A stretch of DNA of 64,000 nt from Candidatus Woesebacteria bacterium RIFCSPLOWO2_01_FULL_39_61 (GCA_001793155.1 MGHI01000040.1:3209-67208); one strand, 5' to 3'; shown: positions 33,469-61,882, counted from the stretch's first letter. Notes: generated by a model not told the origin, from the letters alone. Numbers and translations: made by a program.

Positions 33469-33545
33469 TATTCCTTAATCTTCTCCAATTCTTCCCCAAT
33501 TAATTTCGTATCAACTTCGCAAAATATCGCCTATTCTTCCAGTAT

Positions 33546-34315: not shown

Positions 34316-34327
34316 GCTAAAGAAATT

Positions 34328-34639
34328 ATGGAAATGTCAGATGAACATGTCAAAATCCGAGTTTTTATTAAAGACAAGGGCAACTTGTTAGCGAATGCGA
34401 CTATATCCCTTGAAACCGTATATTTTGGTTTTATTACAATCAAAGACTTTCAAATCTGGCGAAGTCAAAATCTCAACAGCAGACTCCAAGAATACATCAA
34501 CATCAAACCTCTACAGAGAAATGTTTATGGCAAGTGGCTAGACAGAGTATTTTTTGAAGATACAGAGAAATGGTACGAGCTAGAAGCAAAAATTTACGAT
34601 GCTTATTTTATGGCTCGAAGTAAAGCAAGTGATAAGTGA
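34328..34639 (+). CDS. SpoVG-like small protein
   Basis: 103 aa. MEMSDEHVKIRVFIKDKGNLLANATISLETVYFGFITIKDFQIW aligns with the SpoVG N-terminus (ME.TDV.L.RV...GRMRA.ASITLD.EFVVH.IRVIDG). Confidence 0.4.
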   Translation: MEMSDEHVKIRVFIKDKGNLLANATISLETVYFGFITIKDFQIWRSQNLNSRLQEYINIKPLQRNVYGKWLDRVFFEDTEKWYELEAKIYDAYFMARSKASDK

Positions 34640-34924
34640 ACATAGTAACTATGTAGGATATAGGAACCAGTATAGTAACGCTTTCCCTTACAAGGAAATC
34701 TTGCTTATTACTTTATAGAGTTCGTTACTTTATTAGTCATTGTTACTTGTTAGTTATAGTTACTGTAGTGTTTCAAGTAAGATTATGAGATTAAATATAG
34801 CTTGCAACCGAACCTAAAACTTGAGATAATGAGACTGTGCTCAGGGAAATAGGTGAAGTTTTTTAATGCCCTCGTAGGACAGGACTTCACCGTTCTGAGC
34901 ACAACCTGCGGGGGCATTTAAGTT

Positions 34925-36436
34925 ATGGACAAACTTATACACATTCAGTATTCAAGGAAATCATCAGAGGAAGAAGAACGCCAAGCATTATCTATCGAGG
35001 CACAAGAAAGAGAACTGACAGACTTTGCTGACAGGGTTAAGTTTGAAGTAATAAAACCACGACTGGTTGAGACAAAATCTGCACACAAACCTGGTCGTGG
35101 AATCTTCAACGAGATGCTAGACAAAATTGAACGAGGTGAAGCTAATGCAATCCTTTGTTGGAAGTTAGACAGACTCGCTCGCAATGCTCTTGATGGTGGG
35201 AGAATTGTGTGGTTGATGGATGAAGGCAAATTGAAACAGATAGATACTCCCTACAAATCATTTAAAAATACTGCTGACGATAAGTTTTTGATGAGCATTG
35301 AGTTTGGTATGAGTAAGAAATACTCTGATGATTTAAGCGACAATGTTAAACGAGGAATTAGACAAAAGTACGAGCTTGGACAATACCCAAATCTTGCACC
35401 AATTGGTTACATCAACATGAAGATTGATGGTGTAATTAACATCTACCCAGACCCAGAACGCAAAGATTTAGTTATCAGAATCTTCGTTGAATATGCTACT
35501 GGAAAGTACTCACTTGGAGGATTAACTGATATGGTTTTCAAGTGGGGTCTAAGAACTCGAAGGAATAAACCAATCAGTAAATCTCATCTTCACAGAATCT
35601 TGCAAAATCCCCTGTATCATGGCCAATTTGAACATGGTGGAGAGTTACACAATGGCAGCTACGAACCACTCATCACAAAGAAATTATTTGATGATGTTCA
35701 GGCAGTATTAAACGACAGAAGTAAACCGAAGAAGATTGATAATGAATGGCCGTATGCTGGACTTATCAAATGTGGTTGCGGATGTGGTGCATCAGTTATC
35801 TTTGAAACAAAGAAGAAGTATTATAAAAAGACTGATAGAAATGCTGAATATACTTACGCACGTTCAAGCAGAAGATGCAGCAAATGTGCTCAACAAGGGA
35901 TAACTCTTAAAGAACTTGAGCAGATGATTGACGAGAAACTAATTCCTGTCTCAATTGATGAGGATACTTGGAGATTGGGAATTAAACTCCTTAATGCGAA
36001 GTACGATTCAGAGGCGAAACACAGAGCACAAGTTGTTGAAAGTCAACAAAGACAGTACCAGAGAATCCAATCTGAACTTGATGGATATTTTAAGATGCGG
36101 GCACGGGAGGAGATGACAAGCGATGAGTTTGTTGCCAAAAAGAAAGCAATTCTGGAAGAACAGGCAAAATTGAAGGACAAGATTAACGAAGGTTTGGAGG
36201 GTCAAAGGACTTGGTTGGAACTTGCTGAAGATTTCTTTACAACTGCTTACGAGGCACGGAACGTACTTAATAGTGATATTTTGGAAGACAAACGAATGGC
36301 AGTTAAAAAGATTGGTTGGAACCTCTTGTTAATGAACGAAAAGCTCGTCTGGACGTACCAAGAGCCCTATGATGTACTCCTAAAACCCACTTATCGTTCT
36401 GACCTGCGGAGACGAGAGGATTCGAACCTCTGGTAA
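34925..36436 (+). CDS. Large serine recombinase (phage-integrase type)
   Basis: 503 aa. N-terminal resolvase catalytic domain (IQYSRKSSEEEERQALSIEAQ...KSAHKPGRGIFNEML...LCWKLDRLARN), recombinase domain, Cys-rich zinc ribbon (CGCGCG...CSKC), and a C-terminal coiled coil. The 3' end overlaps tRNA-Ser(UGA). Confidence 0.85.
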   Translation: MDKLIHIQYSRKSSEEEERQALSIEAQERELTDFADRVKFEVIKPRLVETKSAHKPGRGIFNEMLDKIERGEANAILCWKLDRLARNALDGGRIVWLMDEGKLKQIDTPYKSFKNTADDKFLMSIEFGMSKKYSDDLSDNVKRGIRQKYELGQYPNLAPIGYINMKIDGVINIYPDPERKDLVIRIFVEYATGKYSLGGLTDMVFKWGLRTRRNKPISKSHLHRILQNPLYHGQFEHGGELHNGSYEPLITKKLFDDVQAVLNDRSKPKKIDNEWPYAGLIKCGCGCGASVIFETKKKYYKKTDRNAEYTYARSSRRCSKCAQQGITLKELEQMIDEKLIPVSIDEDTWRLGIKLLNAKYDSEAKHRAQVVESQQRQYQRIQSELDGYFKMRAREEMTSDEFVAKKKAILEEQAKLKDKINEGLEGQRTWLELAEDFFTTAYEARNVLNSDILEDKRMAVKKIGWNLLLMNEKLVWTYQEPYDVLLKPTYRSDLRRREDSNLW

Positions 36437-36495
36437 CCTCTGCAGGCTACACCGATTTTCAAGATCGGCCCGTTCATCCACTCCGGCACGTCTCC
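36407..36495 (-). tRNA. tRNA-Ser (anticodon UGA)
   Basis: Manual fold: acceptor GGAGACG/CGTCTCC, D-arm CCGGAGTGGATGAACGG, anticodon loop CTTGAAA, long variable arm, T-arm AGAGGTTCGAATCCTCT, discriminator G. Confidence 0.8.
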
Positions 36496-36499
36496 CCGG

Positions 36500-36586
36500 C
36501 GGAGGAGGTGGGATTCGAACCCACGCGAGCTTTTAAGGCTCACGCGCTCTCCAAGCGCGCGGAATGAACCACTATCCGACTCCTCC
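36500..36586 (-). tRNA. tRNA-Ser (anticodon GGA)
   Basis: Manual fold: acceptor GGAGGAG/CTCCTCC, anticodon stem CGCGC/GCGCG with loop TTGGAGA, long variable arm GAGCCTTAAAAGCTC, T-arm GTGGGTTCGAATCCCAC. Confidence 0.75.
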
Positions 36587-37183: not shown

Positions 37184-37593
37184 TTTTTATATACTCCCCG
37201 TGCTTCCTTCAACATGGTTTTTTCTCTCTTGGAGGAAAGCTTTTTTACAGTCTGTGAGTAATCAAACCAATTGGCATCCGGAAACCCGATTATATCTTTG
37301 GCAAATGACTTTGATAACATTAAATAGTATAGGTATCTTTGGGGAACTATTTTCCCGTTGATATTTGTCACGCCTCCCGCACGCCCGACTTCTTCTAAAA
37401 CTCTGGTCGTCATAAAAGCCTTTTCCCCCATCATACGCAGTGCCGCACGAACGGAAGATTCACCTCTTCTAACCGTTACCTTGGGAATCTCCCAAACATC
37501 ATCGTCTTGATGCTTAATCAAAAACCATTCGGGCTTATTGTGCTGTTCCCTAAAAACAATGGCTCCCGAAACTAAAACTAAATTTTTATTCAT
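37144..37593 (-). CDS. NUDIX-like hydrolase (degenerate Nudix box)
   Basis: 149 aa. GAIVFRE...RRGESSVRAALRMMGEKAF resembles a Nudix fold with a non-canonical box. Overlaps the downstream NUDIX gene by 40 nt. Confidence 0.5.
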   Translation of the reverse strand: MNKNLVLVSGAIVFREQHNKPEWFLIKHQDDDVWEIPKVTVRRGESSVRAALRMMGEKAFMTTRVLEEVGRAGGVTNINGKIVPQRYLYYLMLSKSFAKDIIGFPDANWFDYSQTVKKLSSKREKTMLKEARGVYKKWKKERKAKKKNP

Positions 37594-37602
37594 AACTTTA
37601 CT

Positions 37603-37866
37603 TTAACTTGAGGCACCTTCAAAGTAAAACCTAAGCATCTTCTTAATACTTCTTCTCCCCCAACCACTTTTAAGAAATCTTTCCCTAGCTTTTGCATCTT
37701 TAATTATCAAAAAGCCTTCATAATATATCAATTTATACGGCCTATACAGTTTTGTTGCCAAACTCTCTCCAAAGTTGTGTTCCTTAAGTCTTCTGTCAAC
37801 ATTATCAGTAGAACCGATATATAGACTTCTGTTTACTTCACTTCGAATAATATAGACAAAAAACAT
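37603..37866 (-). CDS. GIY-YIG nuclease family protein (short single-domain type)
   Basis: 87 aa. MFFVYIIRSEVNRSLYIGSTDNVDRRLKEHN with GIY...YIG motifs. Confidence 0.7.
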   Translation of the reverse strand: MFFVYIIRSEVNRSLYIGSTDNVDRRLKEHNFGESLATKLYRPYKLIYYEGFLIIKDAKARERFLKSGWGRRSIKKMLRFYFEGASS

Positions 37867-37934
37867 AGCGTCGCGTAATAAATCAAAGATTTAAACGCGA
37901 CAGCCACGTTTAAATTGCTTGGCAATTTATTACG

Positions 37935-38025
37935 TGGCGGTGGGGACAGGATTTGAACCTGCGCGAGGGGATTAACCCTCAAAGGTTTAGCAAACCTTCG
38001 CCTTAGACCACTCGGCCACCCCACC
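37935..38025 (-). tRNA. tRNA-Ser (anticodon GCU), CCA encoded
   Basis: Manual fold: acceptor GGTGGGG/CCCCACC, D-arm GCCGAGTGGTCTAAGGC, anticodon loop TTGCTAA, long variable arm, T-arm GCAGGTTCAAATCCTGT, 3' GCCA. Confidence 0.8.
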
Positions 38026-38101
38026 CCGGCTAAGCCCCAATTATATCAAAACTGAGCATAGTAGAAAATACGACATTTATGTATAATGTTTTTTAGACAA
38101 A

Positions 38102-38659
38102 ATGGCTGCTCAAACACAAAAAACGGCATCGACTAAGAATCCTCAAGAGGACTACGCGGCTACGCCCCCTCCGCAGCCCATACAACCCGAAAAGGAACTC
38201 TTTGCCTGGCACGCGCCGGCCAGACCTTTCAAAAGGAGGGGTAAGGAATTTTGGATGACAATAATAGCAATAGCATCACTATTTAGTTTTATCTTGTTCC
38301 TGGCCGAAGGCGCAATGCCGGTAATTCTTATCGTTTCGGTCATTTTTCTTTTTTATGTTTTATCAAACGTCGAACCTGAAGAGATTCAATATAAAATAAC
38401 AACCAGAGGAATAAGGGTGGTAGGAAGACTGACCGACATGATGCTTATTTCCAGATTCTGGTTTTCAAAAAGATTCGATAAGGACCTACTTATTTTGGAA
38501 ATCTTACAAATACCCGGCAGGCTGGAACTCGTAATAAACGGAAAAGATTTAGAAAAAATAAGGAAAGTATTATCCATCTATCTACCTGAGGAAGAAATTC
38601 CTCCAACCAATTTTGATAAACTCTCGGGCTGGCTCTCAGAAAAACTTCCGGGGAATTAA
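38102..38659 (+). CDS. Hypothetical membrane protein (two TM helices followed by beta-rich domain, PH-like?)
   Basis: 185-aa ORF. Pro-rich N-terminus, TM hairpin (WMTIIAIASLFSFILFLAEGAMPVILIVSVIFLFYVL), soluble C-terminus. Confidence 0.4.
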   Translation: MAAQTQKTASTKNPQEDYAATPPPQPIQPEKELFAWHAPARPFKRRGKEFWMTIIAIASLFSFILFLAEGAMPVILIVSVIFLFYVLSNVEPEEIQYKITTRGIRVVGRLTDMMLISRFWFSKRFDKDLLILEILQIPGRLELVINGKDLEKIRKVLSIYLPEEEIPPTNFDKLSGWLSEKLPGN

Positions 38660-38692
38660 AAATCTTCCCTATTTTTGATAAAATATAACCAC

Positions 38693-38768
38693 GCACCCGT
38701 AGCTTAATGGATAAAGCGTCGGCTTGCGGAGCCGTAGATTGCGAGTTCAACTCTCGCCGGGTGCACCA
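38693..38768 (+). tRNA. tRNA-Arg (anticodon loop TTGCGGA, apparent anticodon GCG), CCA encoded
   Basis: GCACCCGTAGCTTAATGGATAAAGCGTCGGCTTGCGGAGCCGTAGATTGCGAGTTCAACTCTCGCCGGGTGCACCA aligns position-for-position with bacterial tRNA-Arg (E. coli Arg-ACG/CCG). C35 and A73 are present. Confidence 0.7.
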
Positions 38769-38902
38769 CGTCAAACGTGGTAGACAAGCGCTTTCGTCTT
38801 TAATACAAAATTTCTGAAAGAAATTTTGAAAGAAAAGCTGGTAGAGCGGAAAGTATTTTGAAACGGCAGTGAAAGAATACGATCAGCAAACCTATCTTGA
38901 CG

Positions 38903-38950
38903 CGGTGGGTTGTCCGAGTGGTTTAAGGAGCTGGTTTCAAACCCCGCACC
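38903..38950 (+). pseudogene. 5' fragment of a tRNA-Ser-like gene (acceptor 5' strand plus D-arm plus start of anticodon arm), truncated
   Basis: GCGGTGGGTTGTCCGAGTGGTTTAAGGAGCTGGTTT matches the 5' half of the neighbouring tRNA-Ser genes (GGTGGGGTGGCCGAGTGGTCTAAGGCG...). No complementary 3' half follows. Confidence 0.4.
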
Positions 38951-38987
38951 TTTATTTAAGTAAAGAAAATCGTAAATATGTTTAATA

Positions 38988-39074
38988 GGCGGGATGCTGG
39001 AGAGGTCTAACAGGCTGGTCTCGAAAACCATGCGCTTCGTAAGAGGTACGGGGGTTCGAATCCCTCTCCCGCCG
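38988..39074 (+). tRNA. tRNA-Ser (anticodon CGA)
   Basis: Manual fold: acceptor GGCGGGA/TCCCGCC, anticodon stem CTGGT/ACCAT with loop CTCGAAA, long variable arm, T-arm GGGGGTTCGAATCCCTC, discriminator G. Confidence 0.75.
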
Positions 39075-39115
39075 CAGGTAAAGGTGCGGGGCGAATCCTC
39101 TACCCACCGCCCACA

Positions 39116-39787
39116 TTATCGGGATAAAGTTAATCCCCAAACCTCACCGGCTCCGCCTCTTTTGAGAACTCTTCCGACTTCTTTCAGGGTGGTACCAGTT
39201 GTCATAACATCGTCAAATACTACAATACTAGCGCCGTTTAGCTTTTTACTGCTATTCAAAGCAAAGACGTCTTTCAAATTCATCTTTCTTTGTTTCCCTC
39301 TTAGCTCGACTTGGGGTACCGTAGAAGATTTTCTGACGACCTGCTCCGGACTAAAATTCCACCCCATTTTTTCCGCAATTATTTTTCCGATCCTTTCCGA
39401 TTGATTAAATCCTCTCCAGCGCTCACGCCGCATGTACAAGGGAACCGGAACTAGGATTGTGTTGGACGGAAGTGCGTGAACATTGGTCTTCAAATAATGT
39501 ACGGTGTAAACTGCCAGTTCGTCGGCAATTTCATATGCAAAATTGTACTTTAATTTCAAAATCGACTGACGAATTACTTTTTCGTATTCCCAGATAGATA
39601 CTGCTCCGTCTAATCCCCAAGGTCTTTTGCACTTTATGTGAGTGAATCCGTCAACTGACGGTTTTTCGCATTCGACACAAATTTGCCTTACCAGTCTTAC
39701 TTTCCCTAAACAAGCCGGGCAAAGGAAATAATTTTTCATCCTGCAGCCTAAACAAAACTTTGGAAAGAGGATATCAACTAAGTTCAT
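39116..39787 (-). CDS. comF: ComF family protein (double zinc-ribbon plus phosphoribosyltransferase domain)
   Basis: 223 aa. N-terminal CLGC...CPAC...CVEC...HIKC zinc ribbons. C-terminal PRTase motif IVVFDDVMTTGTTL. Confidence 0.75.
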   Translation of the reverse strand: MNLVDILFPKFCLGCRMKNYFLCPACLGKVRLVRQICVECEKPSVDGFTHIKCKRPWGLDGAVSIWEYEKVIRQSILKLKYNFAYEIADELAVYTVHYLKTNVHALPSNTILVPVPLYMRRERWRGFNQSERIGKIIAEKMGWNFSPEQVVRKSSTVPQVELRGKQRKMNLKDVFALNSSKKLNGASIVVFDDVMTTGTTLKEVGRVLKRGGAGEVWGLTLSR

Positions 39788-39869
39788 AATGAGCTAAAAT
39801 ATAAAAACCTATAAAGTCATTACAAAATGGCTTTATATAACTCGTCGTAGGCTCAAGACGAGTTTCGTA

Positions 39870-40319
39870 ATGAGTTCTATGAAAATTATAAACAGAAAAG
39901 CCTCATTCCATTATAAGATTCTTGAAAAATACGAGGGAGGAATCGTTCTTGGAGGAGGAGAAGTAAAATCTTTAAAAGTGGGAGGGGCTGATATTTCAAA
40001 TTCCTACGCGAAAATCGTCAACGGCGAAGTTTATCTAATCAATGCAAATATACCTATCGAAGGCAAAAGGGACTACAACTCAACAAGGTCGCGCAAAATT
40101 CTTCTTCATAAAAGCGAGATCGTATCTATTAATACCAAGATTAAGGCCAAAAAATTGACCCTTATCCCCCTCAAGATGTATAATAAGGGGCGTTTAATTA
40201 AGATAGAATTGGCTTTAGCCAAACCCAAGCGCGAGTTTGAAAAAAGACAAGCTATTAAAAAGAAAGATCTTGAACGCGAGATTGAACGGGAATTAAGAGG
40301 AGAAAAGAAAATTAATTAA
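39870..40319 (+). CDS. smpB: SsrA-binding protein SmpB
   Basis: 149-aa ORF. ...NRKASFHYKILEKYEGGIVLGGGEVKSLK... and a C-terminal basic tail are typical of SmpB. tmRNA lies immediately downstream. Confidence 0.9.
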   Translation: MSSMKIINRKASFHYKILEKYEGGIVLGGGEVKSLKVGGADISNSYAKIVNGEVYLINANIPIEGKRDYNSTRSRKILLHKSEIVSINTKIKAKKLTLIPLKMYNKGRLIKIELALAKPKREFEKRQAIKKKDLEREIERELRGEKKIN

Positions 40320-40417
40320 CAAAAATTGCATTTGCAATTTTTGAAAGGAGAAGCCAGCGAAAAGCCAATATCCCGAGCTTGTCGAGGGATAAAGGCGTCG
40401 AAGCTAGGCTTCGACGC

Positions 40418-40774
40418 GGGGACGATACAAAAGGTTTCGACGGAAAACGTACTTTGAAATCTGCAAGCCGAGTATAACACTTCTCGTAAATCACGTGTTA
40501 AAAACATAATTGCTGATCGCGATTATAATTACGCCTACGCCTAAAAAACGGACGCGTTGTCTTGCCGGATACGATTCTCAACCGCGCTGGTGAGGCATAA
40601 ACCCAGTTGAGATGCGGAAAGTATGTCTGGTTTTATATACTTTCCCAAGATTTAAAACCAAATTCCTAACTTTTTCTTTGGTTTTTAATTTTAGGAATAA
40701 AACCAAAGCCAAATACGCTTGTAGAAGATTTTAAATTAGTTTTTCGGACGAGGGTTCGAATCCCTCCGTCTCCA
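40418..40774 (+). ncRNA. ssrA: tmRNA (ssrA)
   Basis: 5' GGGGACGATACAAAAGGTTTCGACGG (compare the canonical GGGGCUGAUUCUGGAUUCGACGG). 3' GGACGAGGGTTCGAATCCCTCCGTCTCCA forms the T-arm plus acceptor that pairs with the 5' GGGGACG. An internal tag-like frame GCT GAT CGC GAT TAT AAT TAC GCC TAC GCC TAA (ADRDYNYAYA-stop) is present; the exact resume codon is uncertain. Confidence 0.8.
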
Positions 40775-40840
40775 CACTTCGCTACTTTCAATATGAAAGT
40801 AGCTTCGCGTGGTAAACCACACAGTATTTAAAAACCTTCT
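40767..40840 (+). repeat. Direct repeat X: tmRNA 3' terminus plus downstream flank (also repeated at 42259..42320)
   Basis: CCGTCTCCACACTTCGCTActttcaatatgaaagtaGCTTCGCGtGgtaaACCACAcAGT versus 42259 CCGTCTCCACCACTTCGCTAatGCTTCGCGgtGcaagcACCACAtAGT. Confidence 0.45.
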
Positions 40841-40960
40841 TTACATGATATGCGAAGTGTGTCCCGCGTAGCTTTTTTAGCCAGCGTAGCTTTAGCGAAG
40901 TCGGCAGCGAAGTAGGGCAGTGTTTATAAATTCTTATTTACGGTACGATGAGTAAGTTCA

Positions 40961-41197
40961 ATGTATTTCGTCTATATATTAAAATTGAATAATGGCCAGT
41001 ATTATTCGGGTTATTCGTCAAATCTGAAACAAAGAGTGGTGGATCATAAAAAAGGGAGGATAGACGCAACTAAAAATTTTCGGCCTTTAGACCTTGTTTA
41101 TTATGCAGGTTTTAAGACCCGAAAATTAGCAACTAATTTTGAAAAGTATCTTGAATCAAGCTCCGGTTTTGCTTTCAGGAATAAACATTTAATTTAA
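40961..41197 (+). CDS. GIY-YIG nuclease family protein (short single-domain type)
   Basis: 78 aa. MYFVYILKLNNGQYYSGYSSNLKQRVVDHKKG. Confidence 0.7.
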   Translation: MYFVYILKLNNGQYYSGYSSNLKQRVVDHKKGRIDATKNFRPLDLVYYAGFKTRKLATNFEKYLESSSGFAFRNKHLI

Positions 41198-53215: not shown

Positions 53216-53641
53216 ATGAATAAACCAATAACTAAATTTTCAAATAAAAGAAAATACGACCTGGAAGAAAGAACGGCCAGATTTGCAGAAAATGTTATAG
53301 GTTTGGTAAAACAAATACCTGTCAATCCAGTCAATAAACGGATTATAGAACAACTCGTAGGAAGCGCGGGTTCTCTAGGAGCAAATTATTGCGAAGCGAA
53401 TGAGGCTGAAAGCAAAAAGGATTTCATCCACAAAATAGGAATTTGTAAAAAGGAGACTAAAGAAGCGAAACACTGGCTAAGATTGCTAAAGGTGTCTGAC
53501 CACGAGTATGAATTAGGTGTTGAGCCCTTATCAGAAGAGGCTCAAGAACTACTTCTAATTTTTTCTTCAATTAACCAGTCTGCGAAACGCAAAAGTATTG
53601 AAAATTATTATTTGAAAAATTCGTTGAAAATTGAATCTTGA
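53216..53641 (+). CDS. Four-helix-bundle protein (23S rRNA IVS protein / Avd-like fold family)
   Basis: 141 aa. YDLEERTARFAENVIGLVKQIP...IIEQLVGSAGSLGANYCEANEAESKKDFIHKIGICKKETKEAKHWLRLL matches the family pattern (F...L..Q..RA..SI..NIAEG......KD...FL.IA.GS..E....L.L). Confidence 0.6.
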   Translation: MNKPITKFSNKRKYDLEERTARFAENVIGLVKQIPVNPVNKRIIEQLVGSAGSLGANYCEANEAESKKDFIHKIGICKKETKEAKHWLRLLKVSDHEYELGVEPLSEEAQELLLIFSSINQSAKRKSIENYYLKNSLKIES

Positions 53642-55485: not shown

Positions 55486-58400
55486 TTAAGGAGTCGGTGT
55501 TGTAGTCTGAACTGCTCGCCTCTTCTTTTTCTCTTCATCTATTCGTCTTTGTTCTTCTTCGAAAGCTTCGATTTCTTTTGCCATTTTCTTCGATATACCC
55601 CTTCTTGATCTCTCTCGTGGAGCAAAAAGCGTTCCTTCTATATAAATGTCGTATAAAAGGTTCCAATCACTTGTTAATACATCTCTTGCGTGCAACGAGT
55701 CGTAAAGTTGTTTACGCCGTTCTGGGCTCATAAAAAATCGATTATCGGAAAGTACGGAGGTTACTATAGCATTATATGCAGACTCGGGAATATCAAGTAT
55801 TGTTTCTGCTTGTCCGGTAACAAACCCCTTTTCTGGGCTCATTATTAAAGCTGTTGCTCCGAGAAGATAGGCACGATCGGTAAATATCGGAGCCAATTTT
55901 GCATCCCCCCTAACTTTAATCCACTTATCAAGAAAGGATTCCCTCGACAATCTTTTCTTGGGATCCCCGCTCATTTGGTGCCCCTCAAGTGCCACAACAG
56001 CACTGCCAACATCCCAATAATAACCCCACCATTCACCAGCCCTAACTTCATCAAGCACTTTACCGGCGTTTTCATTTCCATTTTCAGTCAGATCAACAAG
56101 CTCAATCGGAACTTCTTTTGTGATTGTTTTTTGTCCTTTTTCAAATTTGATCACGGCTTTTTGTGCAGTCTCGATTGGCACTGCCCTAACATACCTTTCT
56201 TTATCTATAAGTACGTCTGCTATTGAAGTTGATGGGTGCCTGCTTCTTTCTCCCGTCTGCGGATCTGCATATTCTTGCCCTCCCGTATCAATCATCTCCA
56301 ATACACTGTAGAACATCCTCTCCGGAATATAATCTCTTTCGCCTTCGTCAAATTCTTCCCTGAAAGTCGTTCCCTTTTTGGTTTTTCTATCCTTAACACT
56401 GTAATTTTCCCTTGTCCACTCACCTAGGGGACCACCGTATGCGCGTTCTGCGTTTAAGGTTCGTTCCATATCAGCCGCTTTCCGCTCTGCCTCGTCAAGC
56501 TTGTCGGGTGCTATCCGTCCAGCAGCCACATCCTCTCGTATCCGCTTTATCTCTGCCGACTTTCTTTCAAATCTCTTTCTGGCAGAAAGTCGTTCTTTTA
56601 GTTTAAGTCCCGGTGAAAAAAGTTCTCTTACTCCATCCGAAATTGTAGCCGATTCCTGTAGCTTTATAGCATAATCTTTGCGTGTGGGATCATCCTCCTC
56701 CTTAATAGCCTCTGTTTGTGCTCTGTAGACGTCTCCCGAATCATAAGCGCCGGTAGCGTAAAAAAGGTCATCGGCGGCATGAACGGAGGTTTGAATTAAA
56801 TCTTCTACTGTAACCCGATGATCTGTTGCCCATTTTCTAGCTTCTTCCACTTCTTTCTGGTGGTTCTCTAGATTTCTTTCTGCTTTAGTTATTTCCGCAT
56901 CAACATCTTCCCCCTGTACTTTTCTTGTTTTTAAGCTCTCCAATTCATCAATTGATTTCTGCAACCCCTGGTCGCTGAGTCTTTCAGACATCGCCTTCGT
57001 TAAAGCCTTTCTATAAGCGTCAAGGTTCTTTTTATCTGATAAAAGCTGATAGCCTGTTTCCGATAATACAAATTGTTTGAAGTTGAAACCTGTAGCAAAA
57101 TTTAATTTTTCAACCTTCTCTTGCACCTTAACAAGCTCGTCCCCTTGAAATTCTCCCCTTTGTATCTTTTCGGTTAATGTTTTTGCTTCTTCGGCTGCCT
57201 CGGCCCCTACTTTGTCCGGAAAATCTTGGAACACGTCTTTTGCAAGGGTTAAAACCGCCATTCGAAATCCGGGTGTATTATCCCAAGCCTCCCTGAAATA
57301 TTCGCGGGAAAGCCTGGCTCCCTGGGCTTCGATCCAATTTTCGGACGTTTTTGCTCCGGTTAACTCTTTAATATATGAAAGGTAATTGAGCTGTAAAAAT
57401 AGTCTGATTGAATCCTGATATTTCTCCCTATCCTCGTTACTTATCCGGGTGCCGTCCGGTCTTTGTTCAAACCTGAACCAGTACGGGTTGCTCGAATCAA
57501 ACCCTTCGGGGTTTGTAAAAGCCCTGTGCTTCATCGCGTGAACAACGGCCTCGTAACCGGAAAGAAGCGCTCGGTTTTGCTCTACTGCCATCCTATATTG
57601 ACCCTCGGTAAAGTCAGCCATTTTCTTTAATTGTTCAAGCAGTGCATCTCCAGCCACGGCCCCACCAGTAGCAACTTCTGGTTTTCTGTATTTACCCTTT
57701 CCTTGAATAAAGTCGGAGGCGTCTTTTTTTAACTGCGGTCTTTCCTTACCCCATCGTTCGAGATCAATGGTTTTTCCGTACCTGTCAAGGTATAATTTCG
57801 CTTCTTCTGCCACCTTTCTATATTCAGTGGCAGTTTTGGTGTCTCCCGCAGCTTCTGCAGCCAGAGCCGCACCTGGGTAATATTCAAGTTGTGCTTCAGC
57901 AAGATGAAACTCCATTTGATCTAACGCTCCTCCGATATAGGCCGAAGACATTCCCCCAAAATCAACGGTTGATCGATTCAAACTTCTGGTTTCTACTCTA
58001 TGTAGTTCAGATGCGTTTCTACCAAGACCGCCAATTACATCCATTGCATCTATGTAATCATTATCCATTTGAGCCTTTTTTATTTGTACGTTAATCCCCC
58101 GAACCTCACCCGACACCGGATCTGTATGTCTAAAAATTCCAGCGGCTTTTGCTGACTGGACTAAAACTTCATCTCGGGCAAATTTCAGTCCTTCTACCGC
58201 CTTAGCAACCTCATCATCCGTTAAATTTTGTCCGTTTACTGTAAACCCACTTGGTGTATCAACTAAACCCAATAGTCTATTCTGAATTAAAAGAAATAGA
58301 CTTTCGTTGGGATCCTGGGCTTTTTCTCTGTTGATTTCTTCAATTATCCCCATTAACTTTTCGCTGTCTCTAAACTCTACATGTAAGGCTCCGATTGTGG

Positions 58401-58689
58401 CCTTTTCTAAAACTTCCCTGTACACAAGCTTCTTTTCATCAGATAGTGTACCTCCTTCAAATAGTAGAGCCTTCGTGTTTTTTTCCTGAAGCCTATCTAT
58501 ATATTCCCTTCTAGACATAGACCTTTTTTCAATGTCCCCAAGAATTGCATCCATCCTCTCTGAATCAGGATCGTTACCAATATATCTCTTACCCTCTAGT
58601 TTTCCGCTACTTGGTTCCCAACTGGTGGTCGCAATTTTTATATCTGGTCGTCCTTCTCCTTCTGGTCCGTCGCTCATTTTTCCTTTCAC
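55486..58689 (-). CDS. Large hypothetical soluble protein (1067 aa), no TM segments, function unknown
   Basis: The ORF track starts at GTG (58689). The ATG (MSDGPEG) lies 4 codons in. Preceded by the RBS GAAAGGA and a TTCACA-N16-TATAAT promoter. Charged, helix-rich, no recognisable catalytic motifs. Confidence 0.5.
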   Translation of the reverse strand: MKGKMSDGPEGEGRPDIKIATTSWEPSSGKLEGKRYIGNDPDSERMDAILGDIEKRSMSRREYIDRLQEKNTKALLFEGGTLSDEKKLVYREVLEKATIGALHVEFRDSEKLMGIIEEINREKAQDPNESLFLLIQNRLLGLVDTPSGFTVNGQNLTDDEVAKAVEGLKFARDEVLVQSAKAAGIFRHTDPVSGEVRGINVQIKKAQMDNDYIDAMDVIGGLGRNASELHRVETRSLNRSTVDFGGMSSAYIGGALDQMEFHLAEAQLEYYPGAALAAEAAGDTKTATEYRKVAEEAKLYLDRYGKTIDLERWGKERPQLKKDASDFIQGKGKYRKPEVATGGAVAGDALLEQLKKMADFTEGQYRMAVEQNRALLSGYEAVVHAMKHRAFTNPEGFDSSNPYWFRFEQRPDGTRISNEDREKYQDSIRLFLQLNYLSYIKELTGAKTSENWIEAQGARLSREYFREAWDNTPGFRMAVLTLAKDVFQDFPDKVGAEAAEEAKTLTEKIQRGEFQGDELVKVQEKVEKLNFATGFNFKQFVLSETGYQLLSDKKNLDAYRKALTKAMSERLSDQGLQKSIDELESLKTRKVQGEDVDAEITKAERNLENHQKEVEEARKWATDHRVTVEDLIQTSVHAADDLFYATGAYDSGDVYRAQTEAIKEEDDPTRKDYAIKLQESATISDGVRELFSPGLKLKERLSARKRFERKSAEIKRIREDVAAGRIAPDKLDEAERKAADMERTLNAERAYGGPLGEWTRENYSVKDRKTKKGTTFREEFDEGERDYIPERMFYSVLEMIDTGGQEYADPQTGERSRHPSTSIADVLIDKERYVRAVPIETAQKAVIKFEKGQKTITKEVPIELVDLTENGNENAGKVLDEVRAGEWWGYYWDVGSAVVALEGHQMSGDPKKRLSRESFLDKWIKVRGDAKLAPIFTDRAYLLGATALIMSPEKGFVTGQAETILDIPESAYNAIVTSVLSDNRFFMSPERRKQLYDSLHARDVLTSDWNLLYDIYIEGTLFAPRERSRRGISKKMAKEIEAFEEEQRRIDEEKKKRRAVQTTTPTP

Positions 58690-58757
58690 TAATCAAATTA
58701 TATCATCTTAATTATACTTCATCTATAAATTTTGTGAAAACGCTTCAGGTTTGAAAA
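58671..58757. repeat. Direct repeat R1: promoter plus 5' end of the 1067-aa gene plus conserved upstream element TTTGTGAAAACGCTTCAGGTTTGAAA
   Basis: ccgtcgctcatttttcctttcactaatcaaattatatcatc...tttgtgaaaacgcttcaggtttgaaa. About 90% identical to R3 (60308..60385) apart from a 13-nt indel. Confidence 0.6.
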
Positions 58758-58989
58758 AAAATGGAAGAAATATCACTTTAAGAAATTCCTCTAACGTCAT
58801 AGAGGCCTGGTTTAAAATACTCTGAAAGGTTCCCATCGCAACTTCCTTGTGGTTGGGAATAATGATAGTTTGAAGTTTACCTCTCCAAAAACCCTTAAGT
58901 TTGACGTGGCTTCCCTTCTGAGATACTTTGTAAAATCCTGCCTTTTTAAAAGATTTTATGATTACTCTGGCTGAGTAAAGCTTAGGCAT
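58723..58989 (-). CDS. hicA: HicA family toxin (mRNA interferase)
   Basis: Start taken at MPKLYSAR. ...KKAGFYKVSQKGSHVKLKGFWRGKLQTIIIPNHKEVAMGTFQSILNQASMTLEEF matches the HicA core (GSH..., P.H...G.L..IL). The C-terminal tail runs into repeat R1. Confidence 0.6.
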   Translation of the reverse strand: MPKLYSARVIIKSFKKAGFYKVSQKGSHVKLKGFWRGKLQTIIIPNHKEVAMGTFQSILNQASMTLEEFLKVIFLPFFFKPEAFSQNL

Positions 58990-59197
58990 AAATAAGTCGT
59001 AGCTCAGGGTTTTTTGGAACACCAACGGTCGGAAGTTTAACGTTCTCGTCTTCCAACAGCAATTCAACGGCTTCCTTTAAATTGTTAAGGGCCTCTTTTT
59101 CTGTTCTACCTTGGCTGGCAAGCTCAATTCCGATGAGTTTAGCAACAAACAATTTTTCTTCCTGCCAAACAAGGGCTGACAATTTCCTCTTCGCCAT
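58982..59197 (-). CDS. hicB: HicB family antitoxin (short form)
   Basis: Start taken at MAKRKLSALVWQEEKLFVAKLIGIELASQGRTEKEALNNLKEAVELLLED, the UPF0150/HicB N-terminal pattern. Overlaps hicA by 8 nt. Confidence 0.6.
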   Translation of the reverse strand: MAKRKLSALVWQEEKLFVAKLIGIELASQGRTEKEALNNLKEAVELLLEDENVKLPTVGVPKNPELRLIYA

Positions 59198-59248
59198 ACT
59201 AGCTAATAGTAGTAAAAACAACTGCAGTAATCAAGGATTAATTAATTT

Positions 59249-59275
59249 TGTGAAAACGCTTCAGGGTTGAAAGGA
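59249..59275. repeat. Partial repeat R2: conserved upstream element TTTGTGAAAACGCTTCAGGGTTGAAA
   Basis: 27-bp copy located about 50 bp upstream (minus-strand sense) of the hicB start. Confidence 0.5.
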
Positions 59276-59381
59276 AATAATATTATCGATTTTATTCTCG
59301 AATCTCGGGAGTCTGAAAATAGTGCAAATTTACTGATATAATAGAGAGAGTACATTTTCGGAATGCGATGTCTGTAAGCTC

Positions 59382-59633
59382 ATGCTACAAAAAATTTTAC
59401 AAAATAAGCCTTATCTGGCCTGGTATGTTAAAAATAGAAGTACGCTTTCGGACGTGAGTACGTTGGAACATATTTTATCCTACGGTAATTGGGACGATAT
59501 TTTGGAAGCAGAAAAGACCGTGGGAATCTCTAAAATGAAGTCTCTTTTTCAAGAAATCGCATCAAAAAAAAGAGTAAACCTCAAACCACAAACGCTCAAT
59601 TTCTTTCAAAACTATTTCGATAAATATGCATGA
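59382..59633 (+). CDS. Hypothetical small protein, possible cognate partner (AbiEi-like antitoxin?) of the downstream nucleotidyltransferase
   Basis: 83-aa ORF overlapping the downstream AbiEii-like gene by 8 nt (translational coupling). No confident family match. Confidence 0.3.
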   Translation: MLQKILQNKPYLAWYVKNRSTLSDVSTLEHILSYGNWDDILEAEKTVGISKMKSLFQEIASKKRVNLKPQTLNFFQNYFDKYA

Positions 59634-60237
59634 AGAAATTCTATCGGAAAATCAAAAGAGGCTTCTTCCTCTCCTAAATAGATTCTCGGGAAAATTCGGG
59701 CTGGTTGGCGGAACCGCAATTGCACTACATATTGGCCATAGAAGGTCCCTCGACCTTGACCTGGCAACTCTTGAAAGTACAAAAAACGAAAAAGTAGCGA
59801 ACGAAGTAAGAAGTCTTTACTCAATAGAAAGTGTTCTTGTCGATGAAGTAAACGAATTAAGTATAGTTGTAGAATCCGTCAAGCTCACTTTCTTTACCTA
59901 CCCTTTCCACATTGAATTTACAGACAAGCTGACCCAAGTTTTAAAAATGCCAGATTTAGTAACACTATCTTCTATGAAAGCTTACGCTCTGGGGAGAAGA
60001 GCAAAATGGAAGGATTATGTGGATTTGTATTTTGTTTTTAAGAATTACTCTTTAAAGGATGTTGTAGATAAGTCAAAAGGGATCTTCAAGGGTGAGTTTA
60101 ACGAAAAATTATTTAGAGAAGAACTTAGTTATTTTGAAGACATAGATTATTCAGAAGAAATTGACTATATGGAAGGCTTTAAGACGAACGACGACGTCAT
60201 TAGAAATGCTCTAAAGGAAGTCAGCCTTCAGAAGTAA
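59626..60237 (+). CDS. AbiEii/AbiGii-type nucleotidyltransferase toxin (DUF1814 family)
   Basis: 203 aa. ...FGLVGGTAIALHIGHRRSLDLDL... is the GGTAL..GHR.S.D.D motif of AbiEii-family NTases. Confidence 0.65.
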   Translation: MHEEILSENQKRLLPLLNRFSGKFGLVGGTAIALHIGHRRSLDLDLATLESTKNEKVANEVRSLYSIESVLVDEVNELSIVVESVKLTFFTYPFHIEFTDKLTQVLKMPDLVTLSSMKAYALGRRAKWKDYVDLYFVFKNYSLKDVVDKSKGIFKGEFNEKLFREELSYFEDIDYSEEIDYMEGFKTNDDVIRNALKEVSLQK

Positions 60238-60307
60238 TAACTAAAACCTGGTGACCAGTTAACTTGAAGCCAACCTTTTTCAGTACAGTTTTCGCTCACT
60301 CCCAGCT

Positions 60308-60385
60308 CCGTCACTCATTTTTCCTTTCACTAATCAAATTATACCATCATTAGAAAAGTTTGTGAAAACGCTTCAGGGTTGAAAA
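60308..60385. repeat. Direct repeat R3: orphan duplicate of the promoter and first codons (MSDG...) of the 1067-aa gene
   Basis: ccgtcactcatttttcctttcactaatcaaattataccatcattagaaaagtttgtgaaaacgcttcagggttgaaa. Read on the minus strand it gives TTCACA-N17-TATAAT, an RBS, and ATGAGTGACGGA. The ORF then terminates after 12 codons. Confidence 0.6.
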
Positions 60386-60435
60386 AGCACGTTCACGAGG
60401 TAAGGTAAAGGGTGAAGGTTAAAGGGTAAAAGAAA

Positions 60436-60822
60436 ATGACTATTCCCTCCCAAGTCACTAGCTACAAAAAATTACAACTATATCAGAAGGCCAGGCTTTT
60501 AGTTCTTAAAACATACCAGATTACATCCTTATATCCAAAGTCAGAATTGTATTCATTGGTTCCTCAGATGCGAAGATCAGCCATGTCTGTACTTGCAAAT
60601 ATTGTAGAAGGATATTCAAAAGAAAGCGCACCTGAATATGCCAGATTTTTAACTATTTCTATCGGATCTATAACTGAACTCGAGGTTTATTTAGACATCT
60701 CTTTAGATTTGGGTTACCTTTCAAAAGATAAACTTGATAAAATGAATACAATAATAATTGAAGTAAAAAGACTTTTGTACGGATCAAGAAAAAGGGCTCG
60801 AGAAAAGATAAGTATAAAGTAA
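60436..60822 (+). CDS. Four-helix-bundle protein (23S rRNA IVS protein / Avd-like fold family)
   Basis: 128 aa. LQLYQKARLLVLKTYQITSLYPKSELYSLVPQMRRSAMSVLANIVEGYSKESAPEYARFLTISIGSITELEVYLDISLDLGYL is a strong match to the family consensus. Confidence 0.7.
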   Translation: MTIPSQVTSYKKLQLYQKARLLVLKTYQITSLYPKSELYSLVPQMRRSAMSVLANIVEGYSKESAPEYARFLTISIGSITELEVYLDISLDLGYLSKDKLDKMNTIIIEVKRLLYGSRKRAREKISIK

Positions 60823-60856
60823 CTTTCACCTTTTACCTCTTGCCTTTTACCTATAC

Positions 60857-61882
60857 ATGGATCAAGAACACCCGATACCGCAACAAATTTCAGCCTATCA
60901 ATTCAGGCTGGTCGGAGATATGACCTTGAAACAGTTTTTTCAGGTTGCTGCCGGAGTTTTAATTTCTTTGGTTATTTATTCTTCGGGTCTGACGCCGTAT
61001 ATTAAATGGCCGCTGATAATCCTTTCATTTTTGGCGGGCATTGCTTTTGCCTTTTTTCCGCTTGAAGATAGACCGCTCTCTAAATGGCTTTTCCTTTTTG
61101 TAAAAGCAATATACTCTCCTACAATTTATACCTGGAAAAAAAAAGTTGTCGAACCTCAGTTTTTCCAACCCGAACCGATTTCTCAGCCTACTTCGATGCC
61201 TCAAACACCTGCCATAGAGGATTTGGCAACTAAACAGGCTCCTGTACCAAGTCTGGAGCCTTCTCCGAAGGAGTTTCAAAAATTTGAACAGCGCGAAAAA
61301 GAATTTATGTCAAAGGTGTCGGAACAATTTGAGTCAGCAAAAAAAGTTGAACTTGGCGGGAAAGCTCCACGACAAGTTCCTCTGGATAATGATAAGGTTA
61401 AGGTTCCCCAAGTTCCGGCCCTGACGGTCGAAAAGACAGAGAAAAAGCCCGTCGTTCCAATCCCGGAACTTAGCGTTTCGGACGTCGGAAGCGAAATAAC
61501 CGCTTCCGTCGGACAAAGAATGAACGAGGTTAAACTCGCGGAATTTTCTCCGGAAGCAGCACCCCCAACCCCTCCCACAAAATCCAACATTGTTGTGGGA
61601 CAGGTCATAGATTCAAAAGGCATGATTATTGAAAATGCAATTCTTGAAATTAAAGATCCTGAAGGCCGTTCGGTAAGAGCTCTCAAAAGCAACAAGCTAG
61701 GGCACTTTATGATTGTTACGCCTTTGGCAAACGGTAAATATGAGATAATAACTGAGAAAGAAGGGTTTACCTTTGAACCGATATCCTTTGAAGCAAGAGG
61801 AGATATTATACCACCGGTTTTCGTCAAAGCCAATCAAATTGAAGCTAATCTAGCTACTAATCAACCAACAATGGTTAACTAA
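60857..61882 (+). CDS. Membrane protein: N-terminal PrgI/VirB3-like TM hairpin, Pro-rich linker, C-terminal carboxypeptidase-regulatory-like beta-sandwich
   Basis: 341 aa. ISAYQFRLVGDMTLKQFFQVAAGVLISLVIY...PLIILSFLAGIAFAFFP resembles PrgI-family proteins that precede VirB4 in Gram-positive-type T4SS. The C-terminal VVGQVIDSKGMIIENAILEIKDPEGRSVRALKSNKLGHFMIVTPLANGKYEI resembles the CarboxypepD_reg fold. Confidence 0.4.
   Translation: MDQEHPIPQQISAYQFRLVGDMTLKQFFQVAAGVLISLVIYSSGLTPYIKWPLIILSFLAGIAFAFFPLEDRPLSKWLFLFVKAIYSPTIYTWKKKVVEPQFFQPEPISQPTSMPQTPAIEDLATKQAPVPSLEPSPKEFQKFEQREKEFMSKVSEQFESAKKVELGGKAPRQVPLDNDKVKVPQVPALTVEKTEKKPVVPIPELSVSDVGSEITASVGQRMNEVKLAEFSPEAAPPTPPTKSNIVVGQVIDSKGMIIENAILEIKDPEGRSVRALKSNKLGHFMIVTPLANGKYEIITEKEGFTFEPISFEARGDIIPPVFVKANQIEANLATNQPTMVN

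Follow-up and report, generated by a model that had tools for sequence, protein, structure and literature searches.

Introduction

Small gene modules, often toxin-antitoxin (TA) pairs, lie between short direct repeats in cis-mobilizable elements, pdif modules and integron cassettes, and in these systems the recombinase is not encoded inside the modules. In integron cassette arrays the attC repeats fold as imperfect hairpins and the integrase adjoins; insertion sequences (IS) and transposons are recognized by terminal inverted repeats, a target duplication of 2–15 bp and a transposase. A further process, insertion with long target duplication, has been described for restriction-modification (RM) genes (Nobusato et al. 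2000, Gene 259:99; Furuta, Abe & Kobayashi 2010, NAR 38:2428, PMC2853133). In those cases a start or stop codon often lies within the repeats, and the species concerned are mostly naturally competent (PMC2853133).

Here we analyzed a locus in the groundwater genome of Candidatus Woesebacteria RIFCSPLOWO2_01_FULL_39_61, using a stretch of 64 kb that we refer to as the window. Within a type-IV-secretion-like gene cluster, ~1.55 kb of foreign DNA with four ORFs lies between a PrgI-like operon and a gene for a 1063-aa protein, an interval that measures ~105–128 bp in relatives. The cargo is two two-gene modules of the addiction type with putative TA function, hicB-hicA and a pair formed by an 83-aa ORF and the gene for a short AbiEii-family nucleotidyltransferase. 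These modules probably entered the shared promoter region in a two-step insertion with long target duplication, the process that is the best match in the literature.

Results

Resident genes around the insert

The target gene (55486–58677, minus strand), whose promoter and first codons have been duplicated, encodes 1063 aa, or the 1067 aa given in a preliminary description of this DNA if an alternative GTG start at 58689 is used. No family was found for its product in Pfam or NCBIfam, and the gene is hypervariable among lineages, with orthologue identities of 65, 54, 38 and 38% versus 83–94% for VirB4. The resident PrgI-like gene (60857–61882, plus strand) lies opposite it across the ancestral divergent promoter region. 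A four-helix-bundle gene (PF05635; 60436–60822, plus strand), surrounded by a 22-nt inverted repeat (60411–60432 and 60830–60851), represents a separate insertion into the same hotspot, as it is not found in lineages L008, L048 and L049, is present in L055 and survives as a decayed remnant in L002. The insert's GC content is 34–41% versus 39–48% for the flanking coding sequences. For the 1063-aa protein, 24 contigs were read from 63 index blocks; the arrangement was identical in every one, and the locus is therefore not a misassembly. Rfam at gathering thresholds returned only tRNAs and tmRNA across the whole window.

Two two-gene modules

The product of hicA (58723–58989, minus strand; 88 aa) is a putative toxin that matched Pfam HicA_toxin (PF07927) with 51.9 bits versus a cut-off of 27, and residues K25, G26, S27 and H28 of its KGSH motif were invariant in an alignment with seven homologues. 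Those homologues are 72–77 aa long and the alignment covers residues 1–74 only; the final 14–16 hicA codons (FLPFFFKPEAFSQNL) are read from repeat R1, and the tail they encode is missing in all homologues. The neighboring gene (58982–59197, minus strand; 71 aa) overlaps hicA by 8 nt (ATGCCTAA), and its designation as a putative short HicB-like antitoxin is based on this overlap and its position. Its best family match, DUF7387 with 24.6 bits, was under the cut-off of 27.9, a match to PDB 2yzt was weak (E = 0.07), and a single-sequence AF2 model (pLDDT 58) was too poor to use. HicA and HicB had no matches in NCBIfam or PADLOC other than a stray Cas8a match of HicB in PADLOC (E 0.006). Hence the HicA half of the proposed hicBA pair was confirmed, but the HicB half was weakly supported. 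We also observed a weak resemblance (p ~0.03 from shuffles) between the hicB start (TATGGCGAAGAGGAAAT) and that of the class-B big gene in L048 and L049.

The second module begins with an 83-aa ORF (59382–59633, plus strand) that overlaps the nucleotidyltransferase gene (59626–60237, plus strand; 203 aa) by 8 nt (ATGCATGA). The nucleotidyltransferase, a putative toxin, was like HicA above its profile threshold, with 35.6 bits versus 22.5 for Pfam AbiEii (PF08843), although the match covers only an N-terminal motif (residues 21–58). PADLOC AbiEii models reached 1.7e-5, whereas a PDB sequence search was without a match. There are >7800 relatives of this protein, several of them named AbiEii or AbiGii by NCBI; the nearest AbiEii homologue, with 70% identity, occurs in unrelated contexts.

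AbiEi antitoxins are two-domain, winged-helix proteins of ~200–300 aa that are encoded upstream of the toxin. The 83-aa ORF was rejected as an AbiEi, as neither an AbiEi family in Pfam, NCBIfam or PADLOC nor a winged-helix signature was detected. Its only family match, DUF6922 with 13.9 bits, was under the cut-off of 27, no PDB sequence matched, and a Foldseek search of the PDB with its model of five helices (pLDDT 75) returned nothing below E = 2.5. The label of an abiE-like pair thus fits the toxin and not its partner. However, ORFs of 83–96 aa with the same 8-nt overlap onto the downstream gene also occur in L041, L042, L043–45 and L046, so the ORF accompanies the nucleotidyltransferase gene as a conserved partner and is a candidate for the antitoxin. 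Flanking repeats occur at one of the other AbiEii-homologue loci, L044, and there are none at L041 and L046. Upstream of the 83-aa ORF, a promoter-like site (59313–59342, plus strand; CTGAAA-18-TATAAT with TG), a consensus match of 10/12, is likely the module's own promoter.

Three copies of the promoter region

A repeat search returned a 38-nt family with three members (58725–58762, 59241–59278 and 60353–60390) and a 42-nt pair with 95% identity (58666–58707 and 60307–60348), which are two of the five families of direct repeats in the whole window that are at least 26 nt long with members at most 4 kb apart. The three members share a 26-bp element, E (TTTGTGAAAACGCTTCAGGGTTGAAA), with direct copies at 58731, 59247 and 60359. 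These were exactly the matches to E found in 64 kb at up to three mismatches, versus an expectation of 0.00 from shuffles. Both searches placed the repeats where the preliminary description had reported them, but the half-sites within E begin 16–17 nt apart rather than the 14 nt claimed.

Two of the repeats are full copies. The right-hand copy, R1 (58656–58758, minus strand), comprises E (58731–58757), a −35 box TTCACA, tandem −10 boxes, an RBS and the start of the 1063-aa gene, and is the predicted working promoter of that gene. The left-hand copy, R3 (60296–60423, minus strand), comprises E (60359–60385), TTCACA-17-TGgTATAAT, an RBS and an ATG, and has kept the native upstream flank with a CGTGAAC box. 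In a gapped alignment (58758–58656 with 60386–60299) R1 and R3 are identical at 81 of 88 positions (92%), with 15 gap columns inside the promoter. The reported identity of ~90% therefore stands, but the repeat is ~90–100 bp long (88–103 nt spanned) rather than ~80 bp, and includes the promoter, RBS and first codons. R3 and R1 are the two best sigma-70-like sites in 58500–60950, each scoring 11/12; the spacing of 17 attributed to both holds for R3 (TTCACA-17-TATAAT with TG), while R1 has 16 (TTCACA-16-TATAAT). In R3 the copied first codons of the 1063-aa gene run into non-homologous sequence, and the orphan ORF stops after 12 codons (MSDGAGSERKLY, 60318–60280, minus strand), as had been described. 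R3 is an orphan predicted promoter of near-consensus sequence that drives no gene and faces antisense into the nucleotidyltransferase gene.

The remaining repeat, R2 (59239–59275, minus strand), is a partial copy between the two cassettes, upstream of hicB, that consists of E and AAAATTAAT. It matches the ancestral sequence across ~32–37 nt (TTTCAA...TTCACAAAATTAAT), and its E part is the same as in R3 and in the single copy of L048. A CGTGAAC box lies beside every native copy of E and is absent from R1 and R2, whose left breakpoints coincide within ~5 nt at a T-run.

The element had been viewed as a shared regulator binding site, and its strong conservation at the native site across lineages and its position beside the −35 box, like that of an activator or repressor site, could indicate that the three copies did not arise by duplication but are independently maintained operators of one regulon. 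We give this next to no credence: the identity of R1 and R3 continues past E into the leader, RBS and codons, R3 has no gene to regulate, R1 and R2 lack the box of the native copies, and there is no further copy of E in 64 kb. The view of a shared site holds in that E is a deeply conserved promoter core, but its copies are related by descent and did not evolve independently.

Empty sites and alternative cargo in relatives

Five related lineages (L008, L048, L049, L053 and L055) have an orthologue of the 1063-aa gene in divergent orientation to the PrgI-like gene, with one E and no TA genes. The flanking genes are 105–128 bp apart in L008, L048 and L049, the spacer of L053 is without genes, and L055 has the order big gene, E, four-helix-bundle gene and PrgI, which is the cassette-free arrangement that the preliminary description had asked to be sought. 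These empty sites support its proposal that a cassette entered the big gene's 5′ region with duplication of the promoter. Its alternative, recombination between pre-existing promoter repeats, is not supported, as the ancestral site is single-copy. R1 aligned to the single-copy site at 91 of 101 positions in L008 and 71 of 84 in L048, and R3, flank included, at 105 of 146 positions in L008 (9116–9259); the upstream flank of R3 is common to L048, L049, L002, L053 and L055.

A sixth lineage (L002–L007, L033 and L035) has different cargo at the site, MNT/HepT and a 274-aa gene, separated by three partial promoter copies with boundaries unlike those in the window. As relatives have a single E and the cargo differs, E is best understood as the conserved core of a divergent promoter, the extra copies of which arose by duplication at insertion. 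All the empty sites are in other lineages (VirB4 89–94% aa identity) and the source population shows no polymorphism; the polarity of the change therefore rests on parsimony and on the differing cargo of L002.

The opposite polarity, with ancestral cassettes and short sites formed by deletion between direct repeats, is highly improbable. Such repeats do allow precise deletion, and the patchy four-helix-bundle gene requires either losses or repeated gains, but TA genes are absent at the site in five lineages, and the two filled lineages hold unrelated cargo within different repeat boundaries, which means independent gain of the cargo at least.

Collection-wide searches contradicted the concern that the repeats are a common genome-wide motif. 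A degenerate E pattern gave seven single matches in GTDB genomes (the source genome is not among them), all in unrelated phyla and attributable to chance, and 25 matches in JGI metagenomes (likewise without the source genome), of which only those in L033 and L035, of the L002 type, were real. A relaxed regular expression found orthologous copies only. For the source genome, the absence of E elsewhere was demonstrated for the 64-kb window.

The origin of the copies themselves was constrained by the 30-nt leader, which is identical in R1 and R3 but matches no other lineage exactly (28/30 in L008), so this lineage is the source of both copies. This bears on a Campbell-type, or homology-facilitated, integration, in which incoming DNA of a related cell, with the cassette beside the donor's copy of the promoter region, recombines through this short homology, leaving one resident and one donor-derived repeat in place of a true target duplication. 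Such an event could account for the indel between R1 and R3 in the −10 region, and the phylogeny of the 1063-aa gene, discordant with those of its neighbors, suggests allele exchange at the boundary; E, which has the same sequence in the window and L048 (100% conservation), could have been the crossover point, and cases of long target duplication cluster in naturally competent species. However, it is unlikely given that R1 and R3 share an identical leader and RBS that are unlike those in all other lineages sampled, that 34–100 bp of homology is very short for a RecA-dependent single crossover, and that no donor context with a cassette beside E was found, the contexts of the nearest AbiEii homologue being unrelated.

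Signatures of mobile elements

No transposase or integrase families were detected in the insert and no integrase within 20 kb around the site, and the cassette ends, compared by Smith-Waterman alignment against shuffles, have no conserved termini. IS or transposon insertion was rejected, as there is no transposase, terminal inverted repeat or short target duplication. An integron or attC array was also rejected: folding the DNA of the three repeats on both strands gave no attC-like hairpin (z −0.97 to +1.24 versus shuffles), and no integrase is near. A recombinase is first encountered 22 kb from the site, next to tRNA-Ser genes, and belongs to the large serine family.

A recombinase acting in trans on E as an att-like site could nonetheless have moved integrase-less cassettes into the order E-cassette-E-cassette-E. 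Consistent with this, two cassettes are bracketed by three direct copies, R1 and R2 have nearly the same left boundary (within ~5 nt), and the cargo of L002 is also surrounded by E-bearing repeats. In addition, at L044, an unrelated Woesebacteria locus, four direct copies of the 3′ end of a Wzy-like gene separate three cassettes. We nevertheless regard this as very unlikely, since repeat lengths and right boundaries vary (~34 nt, ~95 nt, and ~70 nt in L002, which also has another left boundary), the repeats lack hairpins and the cassette ends lack conservation, E occurs nowhere else in the collections scanned, the L044 repeat is unrelated in sequence to E repeats, and the nearest recombinase is distant. 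Large serine recombinases are not known to produce long direct repeats.

Discussion

Two nested duplications, of ~95 and ~34 bp, fit the structure of this locus better than a single event. In a first step, the nucleotidyltransferase module would have entered with duplication of ~95 bp spanning E, the −35 and −10 boxes, the leader, the ATG and ~5–8 codons, giving rise to R3 and the ancestor of R1 and R2. In a second step, hicBA would have entered the right-hand copy with duplication of ~34 bp (E and 8 nt), producing R2 and R1, and the hicA stop codon would have been lost at the junction, so that a tail of 14–16 aa is read from R1. After DNA uptake, the ends may have been sealed through end-joining or through microhomology at the T-run. 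Several points count against this two-step insertion. Long target duplication is without an established mechanism, and R1 and R3 differ by a promoter indel of 13–18 nt, which either occurred after the duplication or indicates that the copies are not simple in-situ duplicates. In addition, the coinciding left breakpoints of R1 and R2 are not predicted by random breakage and hint at a preferred site.

A selective filter may have shaped what is seen at this site. Only insertions that duplicate E would leave both resident transcription units intact, and since duplication of E spares both back-to-back promoters, such insertions are probably the ones that survive. The promoter copies now face the cargo, R2 in the sense orientation upstream of hicBA and R3 antisense into the nucleotidyltransferase gene, and either could be active, R3 as a possible source of the antisense RNA put forward in the preliminary description. 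A duplicated promoter core that keeps both neighbor operons alive and gives the cargo a promoter is a plausible reason for the persistence of the modules.

The locus is a clean and comparatively dated example of addiction modules entering a streamlined genome of the Candidate Phyla Radiation (CPR) without mobile-element machinery, and it marks a recombination hotspot beside a hypervariable gene of a type-IV-secretion-like apparatus. Its coinciding breakpoints at a T-run, nested duplications and fused HicA tail make it of value as a model for the duplication mechanism. Possibly, although we consider it a long shot, the window locus and L044 are outcomes of one dedicated Patescibacteria process, trans-acting or linked to uptake, in which small addiction or defense modules are inserted serially at one breakpoint with copying of tens of base pairs of target sequence. 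If so, integron-like cassette arrays would exist without attC sites or a linked integrase.

Comparison with known systems shows where the locus is familiar and where it departs. With HicAB type II TA systems it shares a HicA domain above the Pfam threshold, the KGSH motif and an 8-nt overlap with a small upstream gene; however, the antitoxin candidate is only 71 aa long, with no detectable DNA-binding domain and no above-threshold HicB family match, and HicA bears a junction-derived C-terminal tail. The second module resembles the AbiE type IV TA and abortive infection system (Dy et al. 2014, PMC3985639) in its bicistronic overlap and downstream DUF1814/AbiEii nucleotidyltransferase, but its 83-aa partner is without an AbiEi signature and the toxin is short (203 aa), with a profile match at the N-terminus only. 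The array of small, recombinase-free modules, often TA pairs, with short direct copies between them recalls systems that accrete at att sites. It differs in that the copies are of the local target and of variable extent, form no palindrome or hairpin, have no recombinase nearby and contain an element that is absent elsewhere.

The closest likeness is to insertion with long target duplication as defined by Furuta 2010. Both repeats align to a single copy at the empty site (L008 and L048), and R1 and R3 (~88–103 nt) exceed the >30 bp of that definition, with R2 (~32–37 nt) borderline. The insert, at ~1.55 kb, is well under 20 kb and lacks mobile-element genes and terminal inverted repeats. As in the RM cases, the repeats span the start of the target gene and leave it intact, a gene is fused at a junction and repeat lengths are variable. 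The differences are that the cargo is a HicA/HicB-like pair and an AbiEii-family pair instead of RM genes, that the host belongs to the Patescibacteria (CPR), that two nested events share one left breakpoint, and that the cargo inherits promoter copies because the duplicated segment is the core of a divergent promoter. The locus thereby extends insertion with long target duplication from RM genes to toxin-antitoxin modules.

Genomic setting and empty sites

The insert of about 1.55 kb, which holds hicB-hicA and an 83-aa ORF paired with a 203-aa AbiEii-family nucleotidyltransferase gene, lies in a type-IV-secretion-like cluster. Gene order there is some eight pilin-like genes, then a 936-aa gene, a four-helix-bundle gene, a 577-aa membrane protein gene, a 1063-aa gene (55486-58677, minus strand), the insert and a second four-helix-bundle gene, and then genes for a PrgI-like protein, a TraC-like protein and a VirB4-like ATPase. 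A Candidatus Woesebacteria bacterium RIFCSPLOWO2_01_FULL_39_61 protein matches the 1063-aa product at 100% identity, and as all 24 contigs read that encode this product agree on the neighbourhood, an assembly artefact was excluded.

The preliminary description had read the locus as a toxin-antitoxin (TA) cassette inserted in the 5' region of the big gene with duplication of its promoter, and this main reading is supported both by empty sites and by the anatomy of the junctions. Six syntenic lineages were traced through homologues of the big-gene product and of the PrgI-like protein, and TA genes are absent from the site in five lineages. Among these relatives' stretches, the divergent gene pair is 128 bp apart in L008, with one copy of the 26-bp promoter element E, and ~105 bp apart with one E in L048 and L049, while L053/L054 have a 533-bp spacer without genes and one E-like element. 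L055/L056 have the order big gene, E, four-helix-bundle gene and PrgI with no TA genes, which is the cassette-free arrangement that had been proposed as a check. L002-L007, L033 and L035 instead hold an MNT/HepT pair and a 274-aa gene, with three partial promoter copies between. In L002, the flank and E recur in copies a and b (43 nt, 88%), and the -10 region is common to a and c; copy a is immediately upstream of MNT and copy b is antisense into the 274-aa gene. These differing states of the site indicate that two lineages gained unrelated addiction modules at one place, each with promoter duplications. It is highly improbable that the relatives' short sites are instead deletions.

The 1063-aa gene is itself hypervariable and has a phylogeny at odds with those of its neighbours. 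Its product is 65, 54, 38 and 38% identical to the orthologues in L002 (6758-9940), L008 (9236-12391), L048 (5040-7895) and L049 (5060-7897), respectively, with corresponding values of 83, 89, 94 and 89% for VirB4 and 79, 89, 95 and 90% for the TraC-like protein. Two allele classes exist, one of ~1050-1063 aa starting MSDG and one of ~945-951 aa starting MAKKMA, a pattern which suggests allele replacement or diversifying selection within this cluster.

The two four-helix-bundle genes (PF05635, '23S rRNA intervening sequence protein'; 53216-53641 and 60436-60822) are both missing from the syntenic L008, L048 and L049. The second, bracketed in the window by a 22-nt inverted repeat (60411-60432/60830-60851), is a decayed 3' remnant in L002 and a 93-aa copy in the same place in L055. 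Both genes act like insertions that favour a site upstream of PrgI.

Promoter repeats and element E

The repeats described around the TA genes were borne out by a repeat search, an element scan and pairwise alignment. The three direct copies of the promoter segment, R1, R2 and R3, were recovered as a 38-nt family (58725-58762, 59241-59278 and 60353-60390) and a 42-nt pair at 95% (58666-58707/60307-60348), which make up two of the only five such families (direct repeats, ≥26 nt, within 4 kb) in the whole window. In a gapped alignment of R1 (58758..58656) against R3 (60386..60299), 81 of 88 aligned positions are identical and the 15 gap columns fall inside the -10 region. E, common to all three copies, has exactly three matches at up to three mismatches in the 64-kb window and 0 in shuffles; a degenerate version returned the same three and no others.

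The top two sigma-70-like sites in 58500-60950 belong to R3 (TTCACA-17-TATAAT with TG) and R1 (TTCACA-16-TATAAT). R3 comprises a near-consensus promoter, an RBS and an orphan 12-codon ORF (60318-60280, minus strand), oriented antisense into the nucleotidyltransferase pair, and R2 lies upstream of hicB but in the same scan lacks a correctly spaced -10 box. Activity of such promoter copies facing the cargo would be a putative consequence of the duplication. Just 3' of the nucleotidyltransferase stop codon, between cassette and R3, is a near-palindrome (AACCTGGTGACCAGTT, 60244-60262) that could be a weak terminator or be bound by a protein.

E (TTTTCAAcccTGAAGCGTTTTCACA, read along the 1063-aa gene) occurs once, at an orthologous position, in each of the five lineages that carry no TA cargo, invariably after a (C/T)GTGAA(C/G) box. 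The window and L048 agree at 28/28 of its positions, while PrgI is just 79% identical there, and the promoter plus leader is 90% identical to L008, with flanking coding DNA at 65-78%. The -35 hexamer of the big gene's promoter is the 3' end of E, and the CGTGAA box, read from the opposite strand, gives TTCACG, a hexamer that faces PrgI. E is therefore taken to be a divergent promoter's conserved core, and plausibly a regulator site; that its three copies are independent operator sites has next to no probability. A scan of 185,579 species genomes and JGI metagenomes, neither of which holds the source genome, returned only chance singletons and the L002-type locus, so E is not, in these collections, the dispersed motif that would have spoken against the preliminary description.

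Cargo genes

The hicA gene (58723-58989, minus strand) matches Pfam HicA_toxin at 51.9 bits (cut-off 27). Upstream of it, with an 8-nt overlap, lies the gene for a 71-aa putative HicB (58982-59197, minus strand), a label that is positional because the protein has sub-threshold matches only (DUF7387, 24.6 bits versus a cut-off of 27.9; PDB 2yzt, E=0.07). HicA has 88 aa versus 72-77 aa in its homologues, which align to residues 1-74 only. As its C-terminal tail (FLPFFFKPEAFSQNL) is encoded by R1 and the homologues end earlier, the junction has removed the hicA stop codon. The hicB start (TATGGCGAAGAGGAAAT, MAKRK; 59197-59181) resembles the class-B big-gene start in L048 (7890-7876) and L049 (TATGGCAAAGAAAAT, MAKKM), a weak likeness (p ~0.03 from shuffles); if it is real, R2 would be a duplication of the full promoter and start, joined to hicB.

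The 203-aa nucleotidyltransferase (59626-60237, plus strand) matches the AbiEii profile at 35.6 bits (cut-off 22.5) through its N-terminal nucleotidyltransferase motif, and PADLOC AbiEii models match it too. Its family is very large (>7800 matches, members ~203 aa), with source-named members from Patescibacteria (Woesebacteria, Microgenomates, Amesbacteria), and some relatives carry the NCBI name AbiEii/AbiGii toxin. Its gene overlaps the 83-aa partner ORF (59382-59633, plus strand) by 8 nt. In four other genomic contexts the homologue likewise follows an ORF of 83-96 aa with an equal overlap, so the two genes form a conserved module. The partner was rejected as AbiEi, having no AbiEi family matches. 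A DUF6922 match of 13.9 bits is its sole hint (20.3 bits for the counterpart in a second pair, in L044, a stretch of Ca. Woesebacteria RBG_19FT_COMBO_42_9, MGFX01000006.1), and no PDB neighbour was found for its five-helix AF2 model (pLDDT 75).

Other features of the window

A 503-aa large serine recombinase (Resolvase and Recombinase domains; 34925-36436) adjoins two tRNA-Ser genes (36406-36586) and is preceded by four small ORFs (190, 123, 78 [DUF5659] and 103 aa); the region 32896-36586 may be a small integrated element. Two small GIY-YIG ORFs (87 and 78 aa) in 37593-41000 (12679-12942 and 16037-16273 in L051) are close to smpB, the tmRNA gene (40418-40777) and a tRNA gene cluster. Tandem 24-36-nt coding repeats rich in Pro, Thr and Glu codons (10555-10718), inside overlapping ORFs at 9918-10875 (316 aa, plus strand; 245 aa, minus strand), may encode a low-complexity linker of a surface protein.

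Junctions and mechanism of insertion

R3 retains the native upstream flank (...CCTTACCTCGTGAACGTGC), which is orthologous in L008, L048, L049, L002, L053 and L055, and R1 retains the native 1063-aa gene on its side. R1 and R2 both start at a T-run just before CAACC and are both without the CGTGAAC box, and the R2 match to the ancestral sequence ends at TTCACAAAATTAAT. The simplest history would be two nested events, in which the nucleotidyltransferase module entered with a ~95-bp duplication and hicBA then entered the right-hand copy with a ~34-bp duplication. R2, R3 and L048 carry the same E, from which R1 differs by one substitution, in keeping with that order. The coinciding left breakpoints of R1 and R2 suggest microhomology or fragility at the T-run.

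This anatomy matches insertion with long target duplication, and the duplication would let an insertion into a 105-bp region common to two promoters survive. Campbell-type or homology-facilitated integration, in which the donor DNA brought its own promoter copy, would agree with the promoter indel between R1 and R3 and with the discordant phylogeny of the 1063-aa gene, but it is unlikely given the 30-nt leader, which is identical in R1 and R3 and different in every other lineage, so that both copies derive from the window's lineage.

The array-like look of the locus could also point to an att-site cassette system, as could a parallel in L044 (2647-5767), where four direct copies of a 42-57-nt segment have three cassettes between them: a 96-aa plus 212-aa AbiEii pair, an 83-aa plus 203-aa AbiEii pair and a 254-aa secreted-looking protein. 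We consider such a system very unlikely, as the repeat extents are variable, hairpins are lacking (none of R1, R2 and R3 folds) and there is no recombinase in the insert, the nearest being the large serine recombinase beside the tRNA-Ser genes, 22 kb off. Comparison of the cassette ends found no sequence in common. The L044 copies, 62-76% identical to the reference copy, code for the C-terminal end (TMLWLWFTMLGLAQ) of a Wzy-like gene; their layout is that of the window locus, but the repeat sequence is unrelated. A dedicated serial cassette-insertion process in Patescibacteria is conceivable, although we regard it as quite unlikely.

Insertion with long target duplication is known from restriction-modification systems of Helicobacter, Haemophilus, Neisseria, Campylobacter and others, with repeats of >30 bp and variable length and no other mobile element present (PMC2853133). 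Those repeats often cover a start or stop codon, leaving the target gene intact, gene fusions occur at the junctions, and most hosts are naturally competent (PMC2853133). The window insert differs from these known cases in its TA instead of restriction-modification cargo, in its CPR host and in its apparently nested events at a hotspot.
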